Source of the DNA: an uncultured Gammaproteobacteria bacterium
Lineage (GTDB): Bacteria > Patescibacteriota > Patescibacteriia > JAGPKW01
Direction of reading: 5' to 3'
NCBI GenBank assembly: GCA_964532735.1
Contig: CAZHKK010000004.1
Coordinates: 1-50,362 of the forward strand
DNA length: 50,362 nucleotides
Both the position numbers and the translations under genes were made by a program. Below, one piece after another: positions 15,531 through 50,362 of this stretch (positions are counted from its first letter, which is position 1; each line of letters starts with the position of its first letter). The notes beneath the pieces were generated by a model. That model did no database searches. It had not been told where the DNA came from and saw only the letters and a program-made list of their open reading frames with translations.

Positions 15531-16994
15531 TTATATTATTTTATTTGATTCTTCTTTGTGTGCTTGTGTACCGTTTTTATTAAAAAATTCTATTGCAACT
15601 TTTAATTCTTCTAATTTATTTTTTTCTGCGTATTCTTCTATTTCTATATTTTGTTTGTATGCATCCCATGATTGAATTAATGCTGTTGCTCCTGCTTGTG
15701 TTCCCATTGGATGAGAATGAACCCCAGCTCCCATTGTTGTAATAAAATCTATTGTTCCTATTAAGTCAGCAAAAGGTTTTAACAATACTGGGTTTAATCC
15801 ACCTGATATTATAGGACAACATTTTTTAATAAATCTCCAATCTTTTGTTTTAGAAATATTTTTGTTTTCTAATTTATCTTTTATTATTTCTTTTGTTCCT
15901 TTTTCCCAAATTAATTTTTCTTTTCCTACTGCGTATATTATGTCTTTGTCGTTTTCTGGAACATCTGTCCATATTTGATTGAAATAATTTCCTTCACTAG
16001 CTATTTTAAGCGCTTGTTTTGCTGCTGTTATGTCTTCTTCGGGAGATCCTGCCATTTTGCCAACTCCGGCTGTTCCTGTATGTATTCCTGAAGCTCCAGC
16101 TAAACGAGCAAATTTTGTTAAAACAGGCACAGTAAACCCTATTGGATTTTCTTCTCTTGTAAATGCTCCATGTCCAGCTCTATGAAAATGTAAAAATACA
16201 TTAGGATATTTTCTTCTTATTGTTTGTATGGCCATCCATCCACATGTTATCCCGTCAACTAGAAATGCATAGCTTCCTGGTTTCATTGTTTTTGAAACAA
16301 ATTCTGCTCTTTCTAACATAGTATCATAATCAGCTGCAGAAATATTAAAAGAATGAACTTTTGTTTGTCCTGTTATTTCTTCTGCTTTATCCATTGCTAT
16401 TCTTACAGACTCAACCATTTTTTTATAAGGGCAAAATTCTTGATCTGCTTGTGGTTCGTCATTTTTTACAAAATCACCACCACCAACCCAAAAATCATAA
16501 CAAACTTCAGCATATTCTGTTGATGTAAGTCCTATTTTTGGTTTTATAATTGTTCCAAGAATTGGTCTGTCCCAATTATTTAAGTATTCTCTCATGTCAT
16601 CAATTGTATAACTTGGGCCATCATATTTATCTAACATTTGAGAAGGGAACCATACATCTAATAATTTACATTCTTTAAGACTGCTCATTCCAAAAATATT
16701 TCCAGCTATATATGTCATTATGTTTTGTATATTTCCGCCTCTATCAAATATTGAATATGGGTATGCTATCCATACTAATTTTTTTACTTCATCAAATTTA
16801 TAAACAACTGCGTTATGTTTTTTAGCATAAGCTGTTTGAGTTCCTACTTTTATGTTTGATCCAGTTGAAGATTCAGCACAAAGTTCGCTAGCCTCTCCTA
16901 AAAAATCACCACTATAAGTATCAAATTTGAATACAGCTAACATGTATTCTCCAGTGTTTATATCACGTCCTATGTCTATATATTCTTGTTGCAT
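15531..16994 (-). CDS. rbcL: Ribulose-1,5-bisphosphate carboxylase/oxygenase large subunit, form II/III-like
   Basis: The catalytic motifs are all present: CAESSTGS, AGNIFGM, IIKPKIGL, GGDFVKNDEPQ (carbamylated Lys plus Asp/Glu), LHFHRAGHGA, SGIHTGTAGVGKMAG and PIISGGLNP. There is an insertion (..KEKLIWEKGTKEIIKDKLENKNISK..) before the SGG motif, as in form II/III enzymes. Confidence 0.88.
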   Translation of the reverse strand: MQQEYIDIGRDINTGEYMLAVFKFDTYSGDFLGEASELCAESSTGSNIKVGTQTAYAKKHNAVVYKFDEVKKLVWIAYPYSIFDRGGNIQNIMTYIAGNIFGMSSLKECKLLDVWFPSQMLDKYDGPSYTIDDMREYLNNWDRPILGTIIKPKIGLTSTEYAEVCYDFWVGGGDFVKNDEPQADQEFCPYKKMVESVRIAMDKAEEITGQTKVHSFNISAADYDTMLERAEFVSKTMKPGSYAFLVDGITCGWMAIQTIRRKYPNVFLHFHRAGHGAFTREENPIGFTVPVLTKFARLAGASGIHTGTAGVGKMAGSPEEDITAAKQALKIASEGNYFNQIWTDVPENDKDIIYAVGKEKLIWEKGTKEIIKDKLENKNISKTKDWRFIKKCCPIISGGLNPVLLKPFADLIGTIDFITTMGAGVHSHPMGTQAGATALIQSWDAYKQNIEIEEYAEKNKLEELKVAIEFFNKNGTQAHKEESNKII

Positions 16995-38469: not shown

Positions 38470-38522
38470 TTTGTATTAGCATAATATGATAATTATGCTT
38501 GTTAATAAAAAAATATAAAAAT

Positions 38523-39101
38523 ATGGAAAAAGAAAATTTAAAAGATATAAAAGACACAAAAGATATTAAGGAAAAAGACCTTAAAAATTTTACTCGTAAT
38601 GTTAAATTTGAAAAAACAGATAAAGAGTTTGATCAAAAATTAATTGAAGTTACTAGAGTTACTAGAGTTACTGAAGGTGGAAAAAGACTTAGATTTAGAG
38701 CTTGTGTTGTTGCAGGGAATAGAAATGGAAAAGTTGGTGTTGGTATTGCTAAATCTGGTGATGTTTCTATTGCTGTTGATAAGGCTTTTGCTCAAGCAAA
38801 GAAAAATATAATTGATGTTAGTTTTTCTTCTTATACTGTTCCTTGTGAAGTTACAGAAAAATATAAAGCTGCTAAAGTTATGTTAAAACCAGCTACAGAA
38901 GGTACTAATATTGTTGCTGGTGGTGCTACTAGAAGTATCTTGGAGCTTGCTGGTGTTAAAAATGCAGTTGCTAAAACAATTGGAACAACAAAAAATAAAA
39001 TTTCTAATGTTTATGCTACTTTAAATGCTTTAAAAAAATTAAAAGAATTTGAAGAAGTAAAAGCTGCAAAATTTAAGAAAATAGAAAAAGTAAATAAATA
39101 A
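38523..39101 (+). CDS. rpsE: Ribosomal protein uS5
   Basis: VTRVTRVTEGGKRLRFRA.VV.GN..G.VG.G..K, and ATG 38523 is preferred over the TTG at 38499. Confidence 0.95.
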   Translation: MEKENLKDIKDTKDIKEKDLKNFTRNVKFEKTDKEFDQKLIEVTRVTRVTEGGKRLRFRACVVAGNRNGKVGVGIAKSGDVSIAVDKAFAQAKKNIIDVSFSSYTVPCEVTEKYKAAKVMLKPATEGTNIVAGGATRSILELAGVKNAVAKTIGTTKNKISNVYATLNALKKLKEFEEVKAAKFKKIEKVNK

Positions 39102-39687: not shown

Positions 39688-41004
39688 ATGTTTGATAAAT
39701 TTTTGAAAATTTTAAAAAATAAAGATATAAGAAAGAAATTATTACAGATTTTTTTAATTCTTGTGATATTTAGAATTTTAGCTCATTTACCATTACCTGG
39801 TATTAATTTGAATGCTTTAGATAATCTTTTTCAGTCAAATCAGTTTCTTGGCATTGTAAATTTACTTTCAGGTTCTGGTCTTAAAAATTTTTCTATAGTT
39901 GCTCTTGGTGTTGGACCTTATATTACAGCGTCTATTATTATTCAACTTTTGACGGTTATTGTTCCAAAATTAGAAAGAATTTCTCAAGAAGGTGAATATG
40001 GTCATAAAAAATTAGAATCATACACAAGATGGTTAACTATTCCTTTTGCAATTTTGCAAGGTTATGGAACGGTAGCTATTTTAAGTAATGCAGGAACAAA
40101 TATTCTTACAAACGTAACAAATTCTTATATTGTATTTTTATTAACTGTTTTAACTGCTGGAACAATGTTGCTTATGTGGATGGGTGAAATTATATCAGAG
40201 AAAAAAATAGGCAATGGTATGTCTTGGATTATTTTTGCGGGTATTATATCTTCTGCATTATCAAGTGTTGGGAATATGATTCTTACTTATGATTCATCTC
40301 AGTTTTTAAATATTTTATTATATATAGTTATATTTTTTGCTGTTATTGTTGGAATAGTTTTTATTACAGAGGCTCAAAGAAATATTCCAGTTATATATGC
40401 TAGACAATTTAGGGATGGAAAAAATTTTGGGAATAATATGTCTTATTTACCAATAAGAGTTAATCAAGTTGGGATGATACCTATAATTTTTGCTGCTTCT
40501 ATAGTTACTATACCAACAATTTTATCTCAATATTTGGTAAATATTCATAACAATAATAGAATATTAGATTTATTATACAAAGGGTCACTTTTGTTTAATA
40601 ATAAAATTGTATATTCTGTATTTTATTTTTTAATGGTTATACTTTTTACTTTTTTCTATACTTCATTAGTTTTTAAAGCTGATAAGGTTTCAGAAAATTT
40701 AAATAAACAAGGTGCTTATGTTCCAGGTGTTAGACCAGGAAAAGAAACTGAAAATTATTTAAATTTTGTTAGTGGTAGAATAGTTTTATTGGGAGCTACA
40801 TTTTTGGGTATTGTTGCTATTTTGCCTATGGTTACACAAATTATTTTTGGTGTTCAAAACATGATGATTGGTGGGGCTAGCTTACTTATAGTAGTTGGTG
40901 TTATAATGGAAACATTAAAACAACTTGAAGCCTATTCAGTTCAAAATGATTATGAAGGTAAATATAGTGATTATTCTTTAGTTAAAATGGAAAAAACTAA
41001 TTAG
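39688..41004 (+). CDS. secY: Preprotein translocase subunit SecY
   Basis: It has 10 TM segments, with LALGVGPYITASII.QLL, WMGE.I...GIGNG.S..IF and IPVIYA. Confidence 0.96.
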   Translation: MFDKFLKILKNKDIRKKLLQIFLILVIFRILAHLPLPGINLNALDNLFQSNQFLGIVNLLSGSGLKNFSIVALGVGPYITASIIIQLLTVIVPKLERISQEGEYGHKKLESYTRWLTIPFAILQGYGTVAILSNAGTNILTNVTNSYIVFLLTVLTAGTMLLMWMGEIISEKKIGNGMSWIIFAGIISSALSSVGNMILTYDSSQFLNILLYIVIFFAVIVGIVFITEAQRNIPVIYARQFRDGKNFGNNMSYLPIRVNQVGMIPIIFAASIVTIPTILSQYLVNIHNNNRILDLLYKGSLLFNNKIVYSVFYFLMVILFTFFYTSLVFKADKVSENLNKQGAYVPGVRPGKETENYLNFVSGRIVLLGATFLGIVAILPMVTQIIFGVQNMMIGGASLLIVVGVIMETLKQLEAYSVQNDYEGKYSDYSLVKMEKTN

Positions 41005-41030
41005 TTTTTAATAAAAGGTTGAAAATGATG

Positions 41031-41060
41031 TTAGAGATGGGGTAAATACCCTGTCTCTAA
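41031..41060 (+). terminator. Strong hairpin after secY (weak U-tract)
   Basis: TTAGAGATGGGG-TAAATA-CCCTGTCTCTAA, 12 bp including two G-U pairs. Confidence 0.45.
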
Positions 41061-41239
41061 ACGTCTTTAAATTATAAATTTTAAATAACTGGTATTAAAA
41101 ATATAAGGTTATTTATAATATTTAATGTGCATTTCTAAATTATTTGATGTTTAAAAAAATAAATTTCAAAGCTTATTTTAGATAAATAAAGCCAATTCTT
41201 ATAATGATTTGGTGTGTTTTTATTTTTCTGTAATAAGTT

Positions 41240-41268
41240 TTGAAAGTTAATGGTTCTAATTCTATCAA
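41240..41268 (+). promoter_or_regulatory. Candidate promoter of the fused rpoBC gene
   Basis: TTGAAA, 17-nt spacer, TATCAA, lying about 75 nt upstream of ATG 41345. Confidence 0.4.
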
Positions 41269-41344
41269 TTGCAAATAGGTCCGTATAGAAATTACAATCT
41301 TTAATTTTGAAAACTTAATTTAATTAATTAAAAGACATAACTTT

Positions 41345-44300
41345 ATGTTTGAAAAACATACAGAAGCCATAAGACAGTATGTTAAAAACATTGATAAGAA
41401 AACATCTCCAACATATTTATTGGAGATACAAAAAAATTCTTATGAATGGTTTTTTAGAGAAGGTTTAAAGGACCTTTTTGATGAAATAAATCCTATAAAA
41501 GATATTATAGGTAGAGATTTTGAGTTATATTTTCTTGATTATGCTCTTGATGAGCCAAAGTTTGATGAAAATACAGCTCGTTTTAAAAATTTAACATACG
41601 AAGCTTCATTAAAAGTTAAAAGTAAATTAGTAAATAAAAAAACAGGAGAAATAAAAGAACAAGATGTTTATCTTGGTGATTTTCCTATTATGACTTCTCA
41701 TGGAACTTTTGTTATTAATGGTATTGAGAGAGTTGTTGTTTCTCAACTTGTTAGAAGTCCTGGTGTTTTTTTTACTACTGATATTGTAAGAGGTAGAAAA
41801 TATTATGGAGCTAAAATTATTCCTAATAGAGGAGCTTGGCTTGAAATTGTTACGGACCAACATAATGTTTTGTGGGTAAAAATAGATAGAAAAAGAAAAG
41901 TAGCTGTTACATCATTATTGCAAGCTTTTGGTATGGATATTGATGAAATTAAATCTACTTTTACTGAAGTTGATAGCGATCCAGATATTTCTTTTATTGA
42001 TGCTACAATTAAAAAAGATTCTGCAAGAAATCAAGAAGACGCTTTACTTGAAGTTTATAAAAGAATTAGACCAGGTGATCTTGCTACTCCAGAAAATGCT
42101 AAATCTTTAATTTTTGCAACTTTCTTTAATTTCGAAAGGTATGATTTTAGTAAGGTTGGAAGATATAAAATTAATAAAAAATTTAATTTTGATATTCCAA
42201 ATACTCCAGAAACAAGAATTTTAAGAATGGAAGATTTAATTGCTATAATTTCAGAGATTATTAAATTAAACATCAGTCAGGATGAGGCCGATGATATTGA
42301 TCATCTTTCAAATAGAAGAGTTAGATCAATTGGTGAATTATTGCAAAGTAAATTAAGAGTTGGTTTGGCTAGAATGAGAAGAATTATTAAAGATAAAATG
42401 AGTACTCTTAATGTTGAATCAGTTACTCCAGTTCAACTTATTAATTCAAGACCTATTACATCTGTTGTAAGAGAGTTTTTTATGTCTTCTCAATTATCTC
42501 AATTTATGGATCAGATTAATCCACTTGCTGAACTTGAACATAAGAGAAGACTTTCTGTAATGGGGCCAGGTGGTCTTGTTAGAGAAAGAGCTGGTTTTGA
42601 AGTTCGTGATGTTCATAGAACTCATTATGGTAAAATTTGTCCTATTGAATCTCCAGAAGGTTCTAATATTGGTTTAGTTGGACATATGTCTGTTTATGCA
42701 AGAGTAAATGAATATGGTTTTCTTGAAACTCCTTATAAGAAAGTTTATAGAATTATTGAAAATTCAGCCAAATTACTTGAGGGTAAAATTTTAAACGAAA
42801 CAATAAAAGGGATAGGAAAGATTGGAGATAAAATAACTAAGGAATTAGCTAAAAAGATAGAATCTGATAAAAAAATAAAAGAAATTTCTATTAAGCCTTT
42901 TGTTAGTGAAGAAATTCATTATTTAACTTCTTCTGATGAGGAAAGATACAATATCGCAATTAATTATAATTTAGTTGATGGTCATTATTTTAAAAAAGAT
43001 TTTATTGAAGGAAGAATAAATGGAGAGGCTGGAACTATTCTTGTTGAACAAGTTGATTATATGGATGTTTCTAATATGCAAATAGTTGGAGTTTCTGCTG
43101 CTTTGATTCCATTCCTTGAACATACTGATGCTCATAGAGCTTTGATGGGTTCTAACATGCAAAGACAAGCTGTTCCTTGTATAGTTCCAGAATCTCCTGT
43201 TATAGGAACTGGGCTTGAAGGTGTTGTTGCTCGTGATTCTGGTCAAATTTTTATAGCTCCAGTTGATGGAACTGTAATAGAAGCAGATGCTAATTTGATT
43301 AGATTATTAGGTGATGATAAAAATATTTATTCTTATCAAATAAGAAAATTTGTTGAATCTAATGCAGGAACTTGTATAAATCAAAGATTACTTGTTACTT
43401 CTGGTGAAAAAGTTAAGGAGGGTCAAGTTTTGGTTGATGGAACTTCTATTGAAAAAGGAGAATTAGCTCTTGGTCAAAATTTAACAGTTGCTTTTATGTG
43501 TTGGGAAGGTGGTAATTATGAAGATGCTATTTTACTTTCTGAAAGAGTTGTTCAAAAAGATAGATATACTTCTATACATATAAGTAAAAAGATAATGGCT
43601 GTTAGAGAAACAAAAATTGGTCCAGAGGTTATAACTAGAGATATTCCTAATATTTCTGATGAAAAATTAAAAAATCTTGATGAAGATGGAGTTGTAAGGG
43701 TTGGTTCAGAAGTTTCTTCTGGGGATATTCTTGTTGGTAAAATTACTCCAAAAGGGGAAACTGAATTATCTGCTGAAGAAAGATTACTTAGAGCTATTTT
43801 TGGTGATAAAGCAAAAGATGTGAGAGATAGTTCTTTGAGATTAGAACATGGAGAAAGAGGAAAAGTTGTAGATATTAAAATATTTTCAAGAGATAAAGGA
43901 GATAAACTTCCTTCTGGTGTTATAAAACAAATTGAAGTTTCTATTGCTACTTTGAGAAAAGTACAAGTTGGAGATAAAATGGCTGGTAGGTATGGTAATA
44001 AGGGTGTTATTTCTAGAATTGTTAAAATGGAAGATATGCCATATCTAGAAAATGGAAAGCCAGTTGATATATTATTAAACCCTCTTGGTGTTGTTTCTAG
44101 AATGAATTTGGGACAATTATTTGAAGTTCATTTAGGACTTGCTGCTCAAGCTTTAGGAGTAAAAATAGCAACTCCTGTTTTTGATGGAGTTAGTAAGGAA
44201 GAAGTTATTGAACAATTAACAAAAGCAGGTTTTCCTGCTGATGGCAAAATTCAATTATACGACGGAAGAACAGGAGAGCCTTTTACTGAAAAAACTACTG

Positions 44301-47300
44301 TTGGTGTAATGTATATGTTAAAACTTAATCATTTAGTTGAAGACAAAATACATCAGAGATCTATTGGGCCATATTCTCTTGTTACTCAACAACCACTTGG
44401 AGGTAAGGCTCAATTTGGTGGACAAAGACTTGGAGAAATGGAGGTATGGGCACTTGAAGCTTATGGAGCCGCTCATATGTTACAAGAAATGTTAACTATA
44501 AAATCAGATGATGTTATAGGTAGATCAAAAGCTTATGAATCTATTATTAGAGGTGAAAAAATTCAAAAACTTGATGTACCGGAATCATTTAATGTATTAG
44601 TTAGAGAAATGAAGGGACTTTGTTTAGATGTTCAATTATTAAAAAAAGATGAAGAAAATAAATTTAATGATATTACTTCATTGTTTTTTGATGAAGCTTC
44701 TATAGCTGATAATGTTAATGCTAGAAAAATTTTAAATTTTGATGGAATTAAATTATCTGTTGCTTCTCCTGATAAAATAAAATCATGGTCTTTTGGGGAA
44801 GTTACTAAACCTGAAACTATTAATTATAGAACACAAAAACCTGAAAAAGATGGTCTTCTTTGTGAAAAAATATTCGGACCAGTAAAAGATTGGGAATGTG
44901 CTTGTGGAAAGTATAGAAAAATTAAATATAAAGGAATTGTTTGTGATAAATGTGGGGTAGAAGTAACTAAGAGTATAGTTAGAAGATCTAGATTCGGGCA
45001 TATTGATTTATGTGTTCCAGTTACTCATATTTGGTTTTTAAAAGGTATTCCTTCTAAAGTTGGTTTACTTCTTGATTTGACAGCTCAATCTCTTGAAAAA
45101 GTTGTTTATTTTGCTGATTTTATAATTACTAATATAAATGAAGAATTAAAAAATGAAGTTGTAGAAAGATTAAATAACGAATATAAAGGAAAGAAAAAAT
45201 CTGTAGAAAATGAGTTTAAGCAAAAAATTGATAATGCAAAAAATAAATCTGAAAAAGAAGGATTGGATATAAAAGAAGTTGTTATTAGTTTAGAAAAAGA
45301 ATTTGAACAGGCATTGGATAACTTAAAAGCAGAATTTGAAGAAATAAAAACAGATTTATCTGATCTTAAACTTAAAAAGATTTTAAGTGAAGAAAAATTT
45401 AGAAGACTTTCTATTAAATTCGGTTATTTATTTGAAGCTAGTATTGGTGCAGAAGCTATTCATAAATTGCTTTCTGATATTGATTTGGATGTTTTATATA
45501 AAGAACTTGAAGATCAATTACCAACGGTTTCTGCTTTAAATAAAAAGAGATTACTTGCAAGAATTCAACTTGTAGATAATATGATTAGAAATGGTATAAG
45601 ACCTGAATGGATGGTTCTTACTACAGTTCCTATTTTACCACCTTCTCTTAGACCTATAGTTCAACTTGATGGTGGAAGATTTGCGTCTTCTGATTTAAAT
45701 GATTTATATAGAAGAATTATTAATAGAAATAATCGTCTTAAGAGACTTATATCTATTAATGCTCCAGAAGTTATTTCTAGAAACGAAAAAAGAATGTTAC
45801 AAGAAGCAGTTGATGCTTTGATTGATAATGGTGCTAGAAAAGGAAAAATGATTACTTCTTCTACTGGACAAAAGAGAGCTTTAAAGTCTATTGCTGATTC
45901 TTTAAAAGGTAAACAAGGAAGATTTAGACAAAATTTACTTGGTAAGAGAGTTGATTATTCTGGAAGATCTGTAATAGTTGTTGGGCCTAAATTAAAATTA
46001 TATCAATGTGGTTTACCAAAAATAATGGCTATAGAATTATTTAAACCATTTGTAATTTCTGAACTTATTAGAAGAGAGTTTGTGTTTAATATAAGGGCAG
46101 CTTCTCGTATGATTGAACAAGGAGTAAAAGAAGTTTGGGATATACTTGAAGAAGTTGTTTCTAAAGCTTATGTTTTATTAAATAGAGCACCTTCTCTACA
46201 TAGATTAAGTATACAGGCTTTCAAACCAGTTTTAATTGATGGTAAAGCAATTCAATTACATCCATTAGTTTGTGAGGCTTTTAATGCTGATTTTGATGGA
46301 GATCAAATGGCTGTTCATGTTCCATTATCTTCAGAAGCTATGTATGAAGCTGGTCATATAATGCTTTCATCTCATAATTTATTAAAACCTGCTAATGGAG
46401 ATCCTGTTTCTCTTCCTAGATTGGATATGATTCTTGGTTCTTATACTTTAACAAATATTAAAGATATTAAATCTTTTGAAAATTCTTCTTCTCATGTTTT
46501 TGCTTCTTACAAAGATATGTATTCTTGTTTTGTAATGAATAAATTAACATTACAAAGTAAAGTAAGTTTTAAAGATGATAATAACAATAATATAACAACT
46601 AGTGTTGGTAGAGCTTTGTTTAATAGTATTTTACCTTATGAAGCTAGAGATTATGATACTTCTTTTGATAAAAAATCTACAAAAAAATTATTTGCTAAAA
46701 TACTTGATGTTTATGGATTTGAAAGAACTGCTATATTGATAGATGACATAAAAGATTTGACTATAGAATATCTTACAAAATCTGGTATTTCTATAAGTAT
46801 TTGTGATTTGCCTGATATTTCTGAAGAAAAAAGTATTTATGTTGAAAATGCTCGTAATCAAGTAAATACAATAAAAGAACAATATGAAATGGGATTTTTG
46901 ACTGATCAAGAAAGACATAGAAAGGTTATTGAAGTTTGGGCAAAAGTTAAAGATGAAGTTTCTTTAATATCTGATAATAAATTTGATAAACTTAGTCCTT
47001 TTTATACTATTGTTAAATCTGGTTCTAGAGGAACTCCTGCTCAGCTTAATCAGATGGTTTCTATGAAGGGTCTTGTTATTAGTCCTTCTGGGGACACATT
47101 AGAACTTCCTATTAGACATTCTTTACAAGAAGGTTTTGATGCTCTTGAATATTTTATTTCTACACATGGTGCTAGGAAAGGTCTTACAGATACTGCATTA
47201 AAAACTGCTTCTGCTGGTTATTTAACAAGAAGATTAGTTGATGTTGCACAAGATGTTATAATAACAACTGAAGACTGTGGAGATAAAGATGGAGTTTTGA

Positions 47301-48556
47301 TTACCAAAAAAGAATCAAATGAAATAGGTGAACCTATTGAAAATAGATTATTTGGAAGATATTCTCTTGAAGATGTTATTGATAGAGAAACTAATGAAAA
47401 GATTGTTTTAAAGGGTGAATATATATCAAAAATTCAAGCTAAGAAAATATCTGAATCAAGTATAGAATCCATTAGAGTTAGGTCTGTTCTTGCTTGTAAT
47501 TGTGATAGAGGTGTTTGTCAAAAATGTTATGGTTATGATTTGGGAAGAAATAAACTTGTTGAAAATGGTGCTCCTGTTGGAGTTGTAGCTGCTCAAAGTA
47601 TTGGTGAACCTGCTACACAGCTTGTTCTTAGAACTTTCCATTCTGGAGGTATTTCAGGTTCTGATATTACTCAAGGTCTTCCTAGAGTAGAAGAAATTTT
47701 TGAAGGAAGATCTGTTAAAAAGAAAGCTTTTCTTGCTGAGTTTGATGGAAAAGTTATTATATCTGATTCTAAAAATAAAGAAAAAGAAATTATTATAACT
47801 TTGCAATATTTAAATAAAAATTCAGAAGATTATGAAATTTCTAAAGATTCTGAAGTCTTCGTAAAGAATGGTCAAAAAGTTAAAATGGGAGATGTTTTAA
47901 TGAAAGTTGTTGATAAACAATTTAATGCTAAAAATGCAGGAGTTGTTAAAATGGATAAAGAAAAAATATCTATATATTTTGAGAAAGACGAAGAAAAAGA
48001 ATATGTGATTCCTTTTGGGTATAATATTTTGATAAAAAATGGCGCTTCTGTTTCAAGAGGAGATGTTTTAACAGATGGTAGTATTGATCTTTATGAATTA
48101 TTTGAATTAAAGGGTCAAAATGCTGTTCAAAAATATATATTAAAAGAAATACAACATGTTTATACATTACAAGGACAAGATTTGAATGATAAACATATTG
48201 AAATTATTACTAGACAAATGTTCTCTAAGGTAAGAATAATTAATCCTGGAGATAGTAAATTAATTAGGGGTGATGTTATTAGTCTTGGTAAATTTAATTC
48301 TATAAATTCTAAAATTAAAGCTGATGGTGGAAAGATAGCTAAAGGAACTACTCTTCTTATGGGTATTACTAAGGTTTCTGAATTTAGTGATTCTTGGTTA
48401 TCTGCTGCTTCCTTCCAAGAAACAACTAAAGCTCTTGTTAATGCTTCAATTTCTGGTGAAATAGATGAATTACAAGGATTAAAAGAAAACGTTATTATTG
48501 GTAAATTAGTTCCTGTTGGAACAGGTTTACTTGATTCAAATACTCTTATTGATTAA
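41345..48556 (+). CDS. rpoBC: DNA-directed RNA polymerase beta and beta' subunits fused in one 2403-codon reading frame
   Basis: Beta motifs occupy the first ~1100 aa (..NRRVRSIGELL.., GPGGL..ERAGFEVRDVH, GEMEVWALEAYGAAH, PESFNVLVREMKGLCLDV). The same frame then carries the beta' N-terminus (IKLSVASPDKIKSWSFGEV), the Zn finger CACGKYRKIKYKGIVCDKCGVEV and the catalytic NADFDGDQM. There is no stop codon between them. Confidence 0.9.
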   Translation: MFEKHTEAIRQYVKNIDKKTSPTYLLEIQKNSYEWFFREGLKDLFDEINPIKDIIGRDFELYFLDYALDEPKFDENTARFKNLTYEASLKVKSKLVNKKTGEIKEQDVYLGDFPIMTSHGTFVINGIERVVVSQLVRSPGVFFTTDIVRGRKYYGAKIIPNRGAWLEIVTDQHNVLWVKIDRKRKVAVTSLLQAFGMDIDEIKSTFTEVDSDPDISFIDATIKKDSARNQEDALLEVYKRIRPGDLATPENAKSLIFATFFNFERYDFSKVGRYKINKKFNFDIPNTPETRILRMEDLIAIISEIIKLNISQDEADDIDHLSNRRVRSIGELLQSKLRVGLARMRRIIKDKMSTLNVESVTPVQLINSRPITSVVREFFMSSQLSQFMDQINPLAELEHKRRLSVMGPGGLVRERAGFEVRDVHRTHYGKICPIESPEGSNIGLVGHMSVYARVNEYGFLETPYKKVYRIIENSAKLLEGKILNETIKGIGKIGDKITKELAKKIESDKKIKEISIKPFVSEEIHYLTSSDEERYNIAINYNLVDGHYFKKDFIEGRINGEAGTILVEQVDYMDVSNMQIVGVSAALIPFLEHTDAHRALMGSNMQRQAVPCIVPESPVIGTGLEGVVARDSGQIFIAPVDGTVIEADANLIRLLGDDKNIYSYQIRKFVESNAGTCINQRLLVTSGEKVKEGQVLVDGTSIEKGELALGQNLTVAFMCWEGGNYEDAILLSERVVQKDRYTSIHISKKIMAVRETKIGPEVITRDIPNISDEKLKNLDEDGVVRVGSEVSSGDILVGKITPKGETELSAEERLLRAIFGDKAKDVRDSSLRLEHGERGKVVDIKIFSRDKGDKLPSGVIKQIEVSIATLRKVQVGDKMAGRYGNKGVISRIVKMEDMPYLENGKPVDILLNPLGVVSRMNLGQLFEVHLGLAAQALGVKIATPVFDGVSKEEVIEQLTKAGFPADGKIQLYDGRTGEPFTEKTTVGVMYMLKLNHLVEDKIHQRSIGPYSLVTQQPLGGKAQFGGQRLGEMEVWALEAYGAAHMLQEMLTIKSDDVIGRSKAYESIIRGEKIQKLDVPESFNVLVREMKGLCLDVQLLKKDEENKFNDITSLFFDEASIADNVNARKILNFDGIKLSVASPDKIKSWSFGEVTKPETINYRTQKPEKDGLLCEKIFGPVKDWECACGKYRKIKYKGIVCDKCGVEVTKSIVRRSRFGHIDLCVPVTHIWFLKGIPSKVGLLLDLTAQSLEKVVYFADFIITNINEELKNEVVERLNNEYKGKKKSVENEFKQKIDNAKNKSEKEGLDIKEVVISLEKEFEQALDNLKAEFEEIKTDLSDLKLKKILSEEKFRRLSIKFGYLFEASIGAEAIHKLLSDIDLDVLYKELEDQLPTVSALNKKRLLARIQLVDNMIRNGIRPEWMVLTTVPILPPSLRPIVQLDGGRFASSDLNDLYRRIINRNNRLKRLISINAPEVISRNEKRMLQEAVDALIDNGARKGKMITSSTGQKRALKSIADSLKGKQGRFRQNLLGKRVDYSGRSVIVVGPKLKLYQCGLPKIMAIELFKPFVISELIRREFVFNIRAASRMIEQGVKEVWDILEEVVSKAYVLLNRAPSLHRLSIQAFKPVLIDGKAIQLHPLVCEAFNADFDGDQMAVHVPLSSEAMYEAGHIMLSSHNLLKPANGDPVSLPRLDMILGSYTLTNIKDIKSFENSSSHVFASYKDMYSCFVMNKLTLQSKVSFKDDNNNNITTSVGRALFNSILPYEARDYDTSFDKKSTKKLFAKILDVYGFERTAILIDDIKDLTIEYLTKSGISISICDLPDISEEKSIYVENARNQVNTIKEQYEMGFLTDQERHRKVIEVWAKVKDEVSLISDNKFDKLSPFYTIVKSGSRGTPAQLNQMVSMKGLVISPSGDTLELPIRHSLQEGFDALEYFISTHGARKGLTDTALKTASAGYLTRRLVDVAQDVIITTEDCGDKDGVLITKKESNEIGEPIENRLFGRYSLEDVIDRETNEKIVLKGEYISKIQAKKISESSIESIRVRSVLACNCDRGVCQKCYGYDLGRNKLVENGAPVGVVAAQSIGEPATQLVLRTFHSGGISGSDITQGLPRVEEIFEGRSVKKKAFLAEFDGKVIISDSKNKEKEIIITLQYLNKNSEDYEISKDSEVFVKNGQKVKMGDVLMKVVDKQFNAKNAGVVKMDKEKISIYFEKDEEKEYVIPFGYNILIKNGASVSRGDVLTDGSIDLYELFELKGQNAVQKYILKEIQHVYTLQGQDLNDKHIEIITRQMFSKVRIINPGDSKLIRGDVISLGKFNSINSKIKADGGKIAKGTTLLMGITKVSEFSDSWLSAASFQETTKALVNASISGEIDELQGLKENVIIGKLVPVGTGLLDSNTLID

Positions 48557-48574
48557 TAATAATTGTTAAAAAAA

Positions 48575-48602
48575 ACACGTGGAGTTTTCCACGTGTTTTT
48601 TG
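48575..48602 (+). terminator. Rho-independent terminator after rpoBC
   Basis: ACACGTGGA-GTTT-TCCACGTGT followed by T6 and preceded by an A-run. Confidence 0.75.
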
Positions 48603-48655
48603 TTGTTTCAAAATGGTATAATTAAATCATAAATATTAGCTCTTTTTTAAATTTT

Positions 48656-50362
48656 ATGAAAAATTTTTTTAAAAAATTAAGTATAGTATCCATTTTTTGT
48701 TTTTTGTTTTTTGTTATTATTAATAACGTTTTTGCTGTTGCAAGTATCTCAATTTCCCAAAGAGAAGTAATAAGAGATACAAAAAGACTTAATGATCTTA
48801 CTGTTTTTAGAAAAGCTATAGAGGAATATAAAACAAAAAATGGATTCTATCCAAAATTAGAAACTGGAACTAATATAAAAGGTTATGTTAACTCTTCGTG
48901 GTCTAATCAATGGATTTCTTTTTGTAATATATTAGGTTTGTCTTCTTGTCCTGTTGATCCTATTAATACTATTATTGGTTGTGATTGTTCTGTATTTAAT
49001 CCAGATGGACAATGTAGTGGAGATAATATAAACGAAAATATAGATACAACTACTTGTTATAATTCAAAATCTCAATCTTTTGCATGTGTGGATGGTTCTC
49101 GTATTTATCAATATCAATCATTAAATAATGGAAGAAACTATTCTTTAATGATGGAGTTTGAATATTCTGATAATGTTAATTGGGAAGTAGAATCTTCTTC
49201 TGATAATTTAATATTAATAAAGAACTCTTGTGTGTCAGGTGATAATTTTTACAAAATTCTTTCTAATAAACTTCAAAAATGTGGTGATGGTATTTTAGGA
49301 TATAATGAAATGTGTGAAGTAGGTTCTAGAAAAACAGAATTTTGTAAAACACTTAACAACAAGACAGGAGTAAGATATATAGAATGTTCTAATTCTTGTG
49401 TTTGGGATAATACAAATGTTGGGGAATGTAATGTTATTGGTTTTTGTGGTGATGGAATAATACAAACTGATAAAGGTGAAGAATGTGATGGTGGTTATCA
49501 AAAAATGTGTTACAACTATCAAGATTATTTATATAAAAATACTTCTGATAAATATGCAATTAATTCTCATTATAATTGGTATAATGAACAAATAAGACAT
49601 TGTGGTTTAAATTGTAAATGGAATGGTGAATATATAGATTCTACTATTTATTGTGGAGGTTTTTGTGGTGATGGAATAATACAAACTGATAAAGGTGAAG
49701 AATGTGACGATCCTAATGATAAACATTGTGATATTTCTAAATGTAAATACAAGAATAGTGCTCCTACTATTGTTTTTGATTTTTTAGAAAATAGATATTC
49801 AAAAAATAGTTATATCAAATCTAATGTTTGGAGTGGTGATAAATTTCAATATAATAATGACTATAATGGAACAGGAAATATTGATTTAATAATAGCTGAT
49901 AAACAAGATAATGAAATTGTTGCTATTTGGAATTCAGAATTTATAGAAATAAAAACCAATGTTCAAGATAAAGAAAATGATAGTATATCTTTTAAATATG
50001 CTTTTCCTTTAAGTCATAATATTAATTTTGCTATAAAATATTCTAAATCTTCTGATCCATCAAAAACTTTTTACGATTACAATTTTGGAGAATATGTTTT
50101 AGATGCTGATATTATTAGAATATATCCAACAACAATTCAGAATGGTAAAAATACTTACAAGAATTTTGTTGAAGAAAAGGAAAATTTATTATTTGGTCAT
50201 AGTTATGCTGGTTATTATAAATTAGAAATTTCTATAAAAGAAAATTATAATAAAGGTTTACATAGTTCTTCTAATCCACATGGTTTATCTTCAACAAAAA
50301 GCATTAACTTTAAGATAGGACCAGGTTGTGGCGATAGAATTTTACAAAAAGAATTAGGGGAA
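48656..50362 (+). CDS. Secreted pilin-like/Cys-rich-repeat protein, 3'-truncated by the window end (at least 569 aa)
   Basis: The open frame from ATG 48656 to the window edge was checked codon by codon and has no stop. It is absent from the ORF track, apparently because it has no stop within the window. It begins with a signal/anchor (MKNFFKKLSIVSIFCFLFFVIINNVFA) and a pseudopilin-like segment (RDTKRLNDLTVFRKAIEEYKTKNGFYP..CPVDPIN). It then has at least 4 CGDG...ECD Cys-rich repeats. Confidence 0.7.
   Translation, partial: MKNFFKKLSIVSIFCFLFFVIINNVFAVASISISQREVIRDTKRLNDLTVFRKAIEEYKTKNGFYPKLETGTNIKGYVNSSWSNQWISFCNILGLSSCPVDPINTIIGCDCSVFNPDGQCSGDNINENIDTTTCYNSKSQSFACVDGSRIYQYQSLNNGRNYSLMMEFEYSDNVNWEVESSSDNLILIKNSCVSGDNFYKILSNKLQKCGDGILGYNEMCEVGSRKTEFCKTLNNKTGVRYIECSNSCVWDNTNVGECNVIGFCGDGIIQTDKGEECDGGYQKMCYNYQDYLYKNTSDKYAINSHYNWYNEQIRHCGLNCKWNGEYIDSTIYCGGFCGDGIIQTDKGEECDDPNDKHCDISKCKYKNSAPTIVFDFLENRYSKNSYIKSNVWSGDKFQYNNDYNGTGNIDLIIADKQDNEIVAIWNSEFIEIKTNVQDKENDSISFKYAFPLSHNINFAIKYSKSSDPSKTFYDYNFGEYVLDADIIRIYPTTIQNGKNTYKNFVEEKENLLFGHSYAGYYKLEISIKENYNKGLHSSSNPHGLSSTKSINFKIGPGCGDRILQKELGE
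49439..49707. repeat. Two identical 50-nt segments (49439-49488 and 49658-49707) encoding GFCGDGIIQTDKGEECD
   Basis: The copies are identical on manual base-by-base comparison, with a 219-nt period, in frame. Confidence 0.85.

Follow-up and report, generated by a model that had tools for sequence, protein, structure and literature searches.

The stretch of DNA analysed here (the window: 50,362 nucleotides, positions 1 to 50,362 of contig CAZHKK010000004.1, assembly GCA_964532735.1) comes from an uncultured bacterium deposited under Gammaproteobacteria and placed by GTDB in the Patescibacteriota (Patescibacteriia; JAGPKW01), and it carries on its forward strand a single open reading frame (ORF) that joins rpoB and rpoC, the genes coding for the β and β′ subunits of RNA polymerase. 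This ORF, referred to as rpoBC in the rest of the text, extends over positions 41345..48556, starts with ATG and comprises 2403 codons followed by a TAA stop, for a predicted product of 270 kDa. Pfam analyses revealed a complete set of β domains (Rpb2 domains 1, 2, 3, 45, 6 and 7, spanning amino acids (aa) 25-1100) followed by a complete set of β′ domains (Rpb1 domains 1-5, aa 1131-2319) in one uninterrupted frame; the β (RpoB) module occupies aa 1-1099 (41345..44641) and the β′ (RpoC) module aa 1131-2403 (44735..48553). A first-pass annotation of the window had described rpoB and rpoC as one 2403-aa polypeptide, which holds at the level of the ORF, and the translation includes the very string that it quoted, ...PESFNVLVREMKGLCLDVQLLKKDEENKFNDITSLFFDEASIADNVNARKILNFDGIKLSVASPDKIKSWSFGEV.... 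The β motifs GEMEVWALE (aa 1030) and PESFNVL (aa 1079), the β′ zinc-finger motifs CACGKY (aa 1185) and CDKCG (aa 1200), the catalytic motif NADFDGDQM of β′ (aa 1647) and its second cysteine cluster CNCDRGVCQKC (aa 2051) are all present. Since the catalytic and structural motifs of both subunits are intact and the sequences flanking the junction are 80-100% identical across the clade of close relatives described below, rpoBC is not a decaying pseudogene. Genetic codes 25 and 4 were ruled out, as TGA ends 2 of the 39 genes of the window and table 11 leaves every ORF intact; TGA and TAG both serve as stops elsewhere in the window, and the standard bacterial code therefore applies.

The two modules are separated by a 31-aa linker (aa 1100-1130, KKDEENKFNDITSLFFDEASIADNVNARKIL; 44642..44734, forward strand) that is acidic (isoelectric point 4.7) and matches no Pfam family. 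Codons 1100-1136 (44642-44752) had been reported to be free of stops, as is indeed the case, and over the wider interval 44500-44900 the ORF frame contains no stop compared to 28 and 9 in the other two frames. Because these other frames are so rich in stops in DNA of 25% G+C, the open junction is not a product of chance. Comparison with solved structures in the PDB revealed that the match to β chains stops at about aa 1103-1110, while β′ chains align from aa 1131-1132 onwards (residues 4-8 of the chain in most cases), leaving just 20-25 or so "extra" residues; the description of the junction as having essentially no added linker was thus a fair one. None of the top PDB matches is a naturally fused chain. 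Within the clade of close relatives, linker identity is 29-81% compared to 80-100% for the 50 residues on each side, and linker insertions or deletions amount to 1-3 residues. As judged from these alignments, fast evolution combined with small indels is what a genuine tether under weak constraint would be expected to show.

The fusion is not confined to the window. In a search with the full-length protein, all of the 120 best matches were fused patescibacterial proteins of 2240-2426 aa. The closest match belongs to a 90%-identity cluster of six 2403-aa sequences, each on a contig of its own, from NCBI, JGI and ENA; the window itself is among them, and another bears the name "Patescibacteria group bacterium". 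Beyond this cluster, fused relatives share 86, 80, 79, 77 and 69% identity with the window protein. The comparison with orthologues that had been proposed as a check thus gave a uniform outcome: the six closest relatives (P0001-P0006; 69-91% identity, 2387-2426 aa, from NCBI, JGI and ENA) are all fused. The gene order S5-L15-secY-rpoBC of the window recurs around P0003 (80% identity; two contigs, 549 kb and 152 kb long) and around P0006 (69%); the order L15-secY-rpoBC is thus seen in each of the three loci of the clade whose contigs were read, L081, L082 and L084. rpoBC is therefore a genuine in-frame fusion that is conserved within its lineage.

The immediate upstream neighbour of rpoBC is secY (39688..41004), the last gene of the str/S10/spc ribosomal-protein cluster. 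The 340-nt spacer between the two genes (41005..41344) folds, as a whole, into a far more stable structure than shuffled sequence (z = −5.6), and contains a hairpin just after secY (41030-41062, ΔG −22.7 kcal/mol) and a second hairpin followed by a T-run (41188 to about 41230), which has a counterpart in L081 built from different stem bases. The spacer also contains promoter-like hexamers (41177-41205 and 41269-41298), no more than expected by chance (4 promoter-like matches compared to 5.1 expected from shuffling), and no promoter is claimed there. Downstream, an intrinsic-terminator-like hairpin of 14 pairs followed by a T-rich tail (48570..48601) begins 14 nt after the rpoBC stop. All of these elements are on the forward strand. 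Given the strong hairpins of the spacer, one of them with a T-run, rpoBC is probably transcribed separately from the ribosomal operon, as a unit in its own right, and adjacency to secY would not imply co-transcription. The adjacency is conserved in those members of the clade whose contigs were read (about 80% and 69% identity) and is absent from L083, the one locus examined of the more distant fused clade discussed below. Upstream of rpoB in three loci with separate genes (L003, L085 and L086) lies a Mur ligase gene, not secY; trigger-factor, AP-endonuclease-like and NUDIX genes occupy that position in L001, and a solute-binding-protein gene in L002. The position of rpoBC next to secY, which the first-pass annotation took for a relocation, is thus real and recurs in L081, L082 and L084.

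We then considered where this fusion belongs among those of the Patescibacteria. Identity to the window protein falls from 69% for the last of the six close relatives, which together with the window form what we call the window clade, to 51-54% for the remaining 114 of the 120 full-length matches. This large group of fused proteins (the main fused clade) includes named members labelled Lipton-, Ryan- or Pacebacteria, Paceibacterota or Minisyncoccia. To avoid favouring fused targets, we searched with each half of the protein separately. Among 1.84 billion representatives, the top match of the β half was a separate β protein of 1173 aa, aligned in a single block over aa 10-1102, which outranked the fused representative. 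For the β′ half, the 120 best matches were without exception separately encoded proteins of 1273-1349 aa (from Kuenen-, Kerfeld-, Falkow-, Nomurabacteria and similar groups). In direct BLASTP comparisons, the window β′ half scored 1389-1466 bits against these 120 separate β′ proteins, and at most 1210 bits against the β′ half of any member of the main fused clade.

Phylogenetic trees were inferred by neighbour-joining from corrected p-distances with 100 bootstraps. The window clade is monophyletic (bootstrap 100) and joins the patescibacterial loci L001-L003, in which rpoB and rpoC are separate, with a bootstrap of 100 for β and 98 for β′, while the window falls outside the main fused clade (bootstrap 72-77). 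In the densest β′ tree, the window clade pairs with P0299, again from a lineage with separate genes (bootstrap 63). Neither the neighbour-joining trees nor the bit scores nest both halves of the window protein inside the fused Paceibacteria clade, and the indel pattern agrees; we regard this exclusion as moderately strong. A scan of genome contigs with the junction peptide, which contains the universally conserved patterns EMEVWALE and HIWFLKGI, mostly retrieved unrelated bacteria whose adjacent genes were bridged by tblastn. In all 80 loci recovered in this way rpoC continues the frame of rpoB, which is a selection effect, and of these loci only L001-L003, L006, L011 and L029 are informative.

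Features other than the trees point the same way. In the main fused clade, 86 of 108 proteins place the PASF and SP motifs 40 aa apart, and the linker has the form ...SLAFNIQPLYENE.DRKD.FSALKI.VASP, whereas the corresponding PESF-to-SP spacing in the window clade is 59-62 aa and its linker is unrelated; the 40-aa junction typical of Paceibacteria and Adlerbacteria, with ...QPLY..E.DRKD.F.ALKI, was not found in the window clade. An insertion in β at about aa 465-520 is present in full in P0121, which is separately encoded, and in part in L001-L003, and is absent from the main fused clade. Finally, the genes after rpoC in L085 and L086, where rpoB and rpoC are separate, are FtsK-HTH-RecA, and in L081, a locus of the window clade, two ORFs lie between rpoBC and FtsK-RecA, whereas rpsF-ssb-rplK lie downstream in the main-clade locus L083. 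Junction length, junction sequence, the β insertion and the FtsK-RecA synteny thus agree with the grouping of the window clade in the trees, and the sequence comparisons suggest that the fusion of the window lineage most likely arose independently of that of the large fused Paceibacteria clade.

The strongest alternative is a single ancient fusion shared with the Paceibacteria clade, the relatives with separate genes being products of secondary fission. The uniformly fused state of the 120 best full-length matches would fit such a history, as would the position of the window clade near the base of the separate-gene group in the densest β′ tree, with support of 63-71%. Two loci with separate genes, L011 and L029, also fall inside the smallest clade holding all main fused proteins, so that changes of state in either direction are possible. 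A common ancient fusion would nonetheless require many fissions as opposed to two fusions; it must also accommodate junctions that differ in both length and sequence, the homology between the β tail of the window and the free β tails found in L001 and L002, a β′ half far closer to 120 separate proteins than to that of any main-clade fusion, and a β insertion and downstream synteny common to the window clade and its separate-gene relatives. We therefore consider a single ancient origin unlikely. The two loci deserve mention in their own right: separate rpoB and rpoC are found at 3188-3376 of L011 (labelled Saccharibacteria) and at about 10150-10630 of L029 (Nomurabacteria), and their placement within the smallest neighbour-joining clade of main fusions hints at either secondary fission or further independent fusions within the Paceibacteria.

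A less probable alternative accepts the fused ORF but has it yield two polypeptides, by internal initiation, by transcriptional or translational slippage that ends β early, or by proteolysis of the linker. Just two start-type codons lie in frame close to the junction: ATG 1089, which lies inside the conserved β motif REMKG, and TTG 1113 (44681..44683, forward strand). The first-pass annotation had named the TTG as the only in-frame potential start at the junction, which is correct for the linker. It had also invoked the lack of a Shine-Dalgarno (SD) sequence; no SD-like motif indeed exists in 44560-44800, but the argument is void, since just 1 of the 39 window genes has such a motif within 21 nt upstream of its start and its absence at the junction therefore carries no information. 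The start of rpoBC itself at 41345 lacks one, and the sequence upstream of the gene starts of the window is almost pure A/T, so that this genome appears to initiate translation without SD pairing. The presence of a TTG in the linker, and the fast evolution of the linker, like that of an exposed segment, would be compatible with two chains. The TTG is not conserved, however: in L084 (69% identity), ATG, GTG and TTG are all absent from the entire junction. A run of seven adenines (A7) at the linker start (44641..44647, forward strand) is a possible slippage site, but this run is missing from the junction DNA of L081, where the longest A-run is 4 and the frame is nevertheless the same, and such runs are no commoner in rpoBC (5) than elsewhere in the window (100 in all). 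Moreover, no promoter-like or terminator-like site was found in 44300-45000, and the Helicobacter fusion is reportedly made as a single tethered chain. Internal initiation at the junction thus looks unlikely, and two polypeptides improbable.

The least tenable alternative is an assembly or sequencing artefact, with two genes falsely joined by an indel, for which the A7 run is the sole plausible site. It draws on the location of that run exactly at the linker start and on the closest separate-gene relatives, whose same-frame rpoB and rpoC lie 3-21 nt apart so that a small error could mimic a fusion, but it is effectively refuted by six contigs from three sources encoding the same 2403-aa protein, by relatives at 69-86% identity that are fused with different DNA (L081 having no A-run longer than 4), by a linker kept at the protein level across the clade and by the absence of any in-frame stop; one point error, moreover, could not erase both a stop and a start context. 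Separately, we observed that the gene calls on a JGI contig of the P0299 lineage (L087, 1-1976) split rpoB into two pieces, 394 and 244 aa long, probably because of a frameshift error; this case illustrates that short metagenome contigs do carry artefacts in these long genes.

The organization of the separate-gene relatives suggests how the fusion could have arisen. In L001, the β tail ...GLCLDVELVKDGKK...KK is followed by TAG, 21 nt and the ATG of rpoC in the same frame, and a hypothetical read-through would place 67 residues between the two motifs that flank the junction. L085 is even more compact, with a stop codon, 3 nt and an in-frame ATG. The β tail of the window, GLCLDVQLLKKDE..., can be recognised as that of L001 and L002, with the common motif GLCLDV[EQ]L[LV]K. 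The ancestor would thus have had adjacent rpoB and rpoC genes in the same frame, a few codons apart; the rpoB stop codon would have been lost, and the short in-frame spacer read through, with small deletions. Since the separate-gene relatives are nearly fused and share the β tail, we infer that loss of the stop codon is the simplest route, the linker probably deriving from the old β tail, the spacer and the β′ N-terminus. In the same lineage, rearrangement of the upstream flank would have brought the gene behind secY, while the downstream FtsK-RecA neighbourhood was kept.

Translation from the ATG at 41345 would then give one polypeptide of about 270 kDa, with some 25-31 acidic residues that evolve fast tying the β C-terminus to the β′ N-terminus. 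These two ends are close together in assembled RNA polymerase. Because of this proximity, and because engineered fusions are functional (see below), the fused chain would be expected to fold as the normal β/β′ crab-claw, with a fixed 1:1 stoichiometry and one assembly step fewer. The product is most likely a tethered β-β′ subunit with no new catalytic property to be expected, and we saw no sign of a new mechanism.

Taken together, we place a probability of roughly 0.85 on a genuine, lineage-conserved fusion that is made as a single tethered chain and originated independently by stop loss. Several points weigh against it. The trees supporting the independent origin are neighbour-joining rather than maximum likelihood trees, and the near-basal position of the window clade, together with the ancient fusion that it could reflect, has been noted above. 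The single 270-kDa chain in vivo is a prediction from the ORF, and with initiation apparently independent of SD pairing, sequence motifs say little about a possible start at the junction. Furthermore, an AlphaFold2 model of aa 1001-1330 has too low a confidence to inform on the structure of the linker, with a mean predicted local distance difference test score (pLDDT) of 56 and a predicted template modelling score (pTM) of 0.31.

Additional fusions came to light in the same searches. P0007 (2286 aa; L088, 4916-11776) is a fused rpoBC with 49 aa between PASF and SP and the synteny rpoBC-FtsK-HTH-RecA; its β′ half is nearest to separate β′ proteins and its β half to the main fused clade, and it may represent a third independent fusion. 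Among the 150 best β representatives, 10 are fused (2153-2812 aa), those outside the window clade being P0131, P0188, P0230, P0236, P0238, P0241, P0244, P0248 and P0254/P0295. One fused cluster bears the name Anaerolineaceae bacterium (MBQ6520178.1; 2744 aa, with a junction of 81 aa). It appears that natural rpoBC fusion extends far beyond the two textbook cases.

On balance, we lean slightly towards recurrent rpoB-rpoC fusion in the Patescibacteria, with at least two and probably three junction types (the 40-aa type of Paceibacteria, the 49-aa type of P0007 and the 59-62-aa type of the window clade); stop loss from adjacent same-frame genes could have produced each of them. Such recurrence, if true, would point to repeated selection in ultra-small cells with reduced genomes for tethered large subunits, through fixed stoichiometry and simpler assembly, and the event in the window clade would have coincided with the move behind the ribosomal-protein/secY cluster. 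β-β′ fusions are textbook rarities of Helicobacteraceae and Wolbachia; the present data show them to be the usual state across a very large, uncultured section of the bacterial tree, and at least one further small lineage probably acquired the same fusion independently. This provides a natural series of replicates for asking why large subunits become tethered in small-genome bacteria. There is also a practical side, as rpoB and rpoC are standard single-copy markers for phylogeny and genome completeness, and fused genes annotated just as "subunit β′" can distort marker counts.

The window has 25% G+C throughout, and its str/S10/spc ribosomal cluster runs from rpsL, rpsG, fusA and tuf to L15 and secY. 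The L30 gene usually sits between those for S5 and L15, and its loss has been reported for bacteria of the candidate phyla radiation (CPR). No ORF of at least 90 aa, a cut-off above the length of L30, was found in the 47-nt gap between the S5-sized ORF (38499-39101) and L15 (39149-39610). A homologue of the RuBisCO large chain (15531-16994, reverse strand; 487 aa; PF00016 and PF02788) lies in a slightly GC-richer stretch (29-30%) on the strand opposite to most genes; a RuBisCO-like gene is common in CPR bacteria. Downstream of rpoBC, a long ORF rich in cysteine, with a hydrophobic segment at its N-terminus, a repeated FCGDGIIQTDKGEECD motif and no Pfam match (48650-50362, forward strand) runs off the end of the contig, and large unannotated proteins of 1799 and 1107 aa occupy the same position in L081 and L082. 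With regard to taxonomic labels, L002 (CAZIVC010000002.1) is deposited as "Gammaproteobacteria bacterium" and P0079 as "Anaplasmataceae bacterium", while their RNA polymerase genes cluster with those of the Patescibacteria; both bins are probably mislabelled.

In H. pylori, the fused protein is about 2890 aa long (compared to 2403 aa for the window protein) and reportedly tolerates being split. The RpoB-RpoC fusion has been described as a peculiarity of Helicobacter and Wolinella (PMC9696931), and natural fusions are established for Helicobacteraceae and Wolbachia (PMC7483510, citing Lane and Darst 2010), as the first-pass annotation had stated for Helicobacter and Wolbachia. Like the window protein, the Helicobacter and Wolinella fusions are natural single polypeptides with β preceding β′ in frame, but they belong to another phylum, and since the nearest relatives of the window protein are Patescibacteria, its fusion is independent of the Helicobacteraceae event. 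Wolbachia likewise provides a natural fusion in a reduced-genome bacterium; as it is an alphaproteobacterial endosymbiont, its fusion would represent an independent event. Neither Campylobacterota nor Rickettsiales emerged as closest relatives: the named close relatives are Patescibacteria, barring generic "bacterium" labels and P0079.

The earlier statement that no description exists for this kind of organism did not hold. Besides the 120 fused patescibacterial proteins among the best matches, one sentence of a 2024 paper mentions a fused β/β′ in Candidatus Adlerbacteria (PMC11515920), the single mention of an rpoBC fusion in CPR/Patescibacteria that we found in the literature. As far as we found there, the near-universality of the fusion in Paceibacteria and its separate origin in the window lineage are undescribed. 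The Adlerbacteria/Paceibacteria (Parcubacteria) clade shares with the window clade the superphylum, the order of β before β′ and a short junction, but differs by its conserved 40-aa junction and by the lack of the β insertion at aa 465-520. Engineered fusions show the same direction of tethering: an rpoB-rpoC fusion gives a usable RNA polymerase in E. coli (10.1101/2021.11.05.467461), and the fused rpoBC construct pMP61 was used to express M. tuberculosis RNA polymerase (10.64898/2026.04.06.716786), although their linkers are artificial and imply no evolutionary relationship. The closest sequence relatives of both halves remain the Kuenen-/Kerfeldbacteria-like loci L001, L085 and L086, which have the β tail, the β insertion and the FtsK-RecA neighbourhood in common with the window and, unlike it, still separate rpoB from rpoC by a stop codon, 3-78 nt of spacer and a start codon. 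As a kind, then, the fusion is already known, and what seems new, from comparison with these systems, is the apparently independent event in this lineage.

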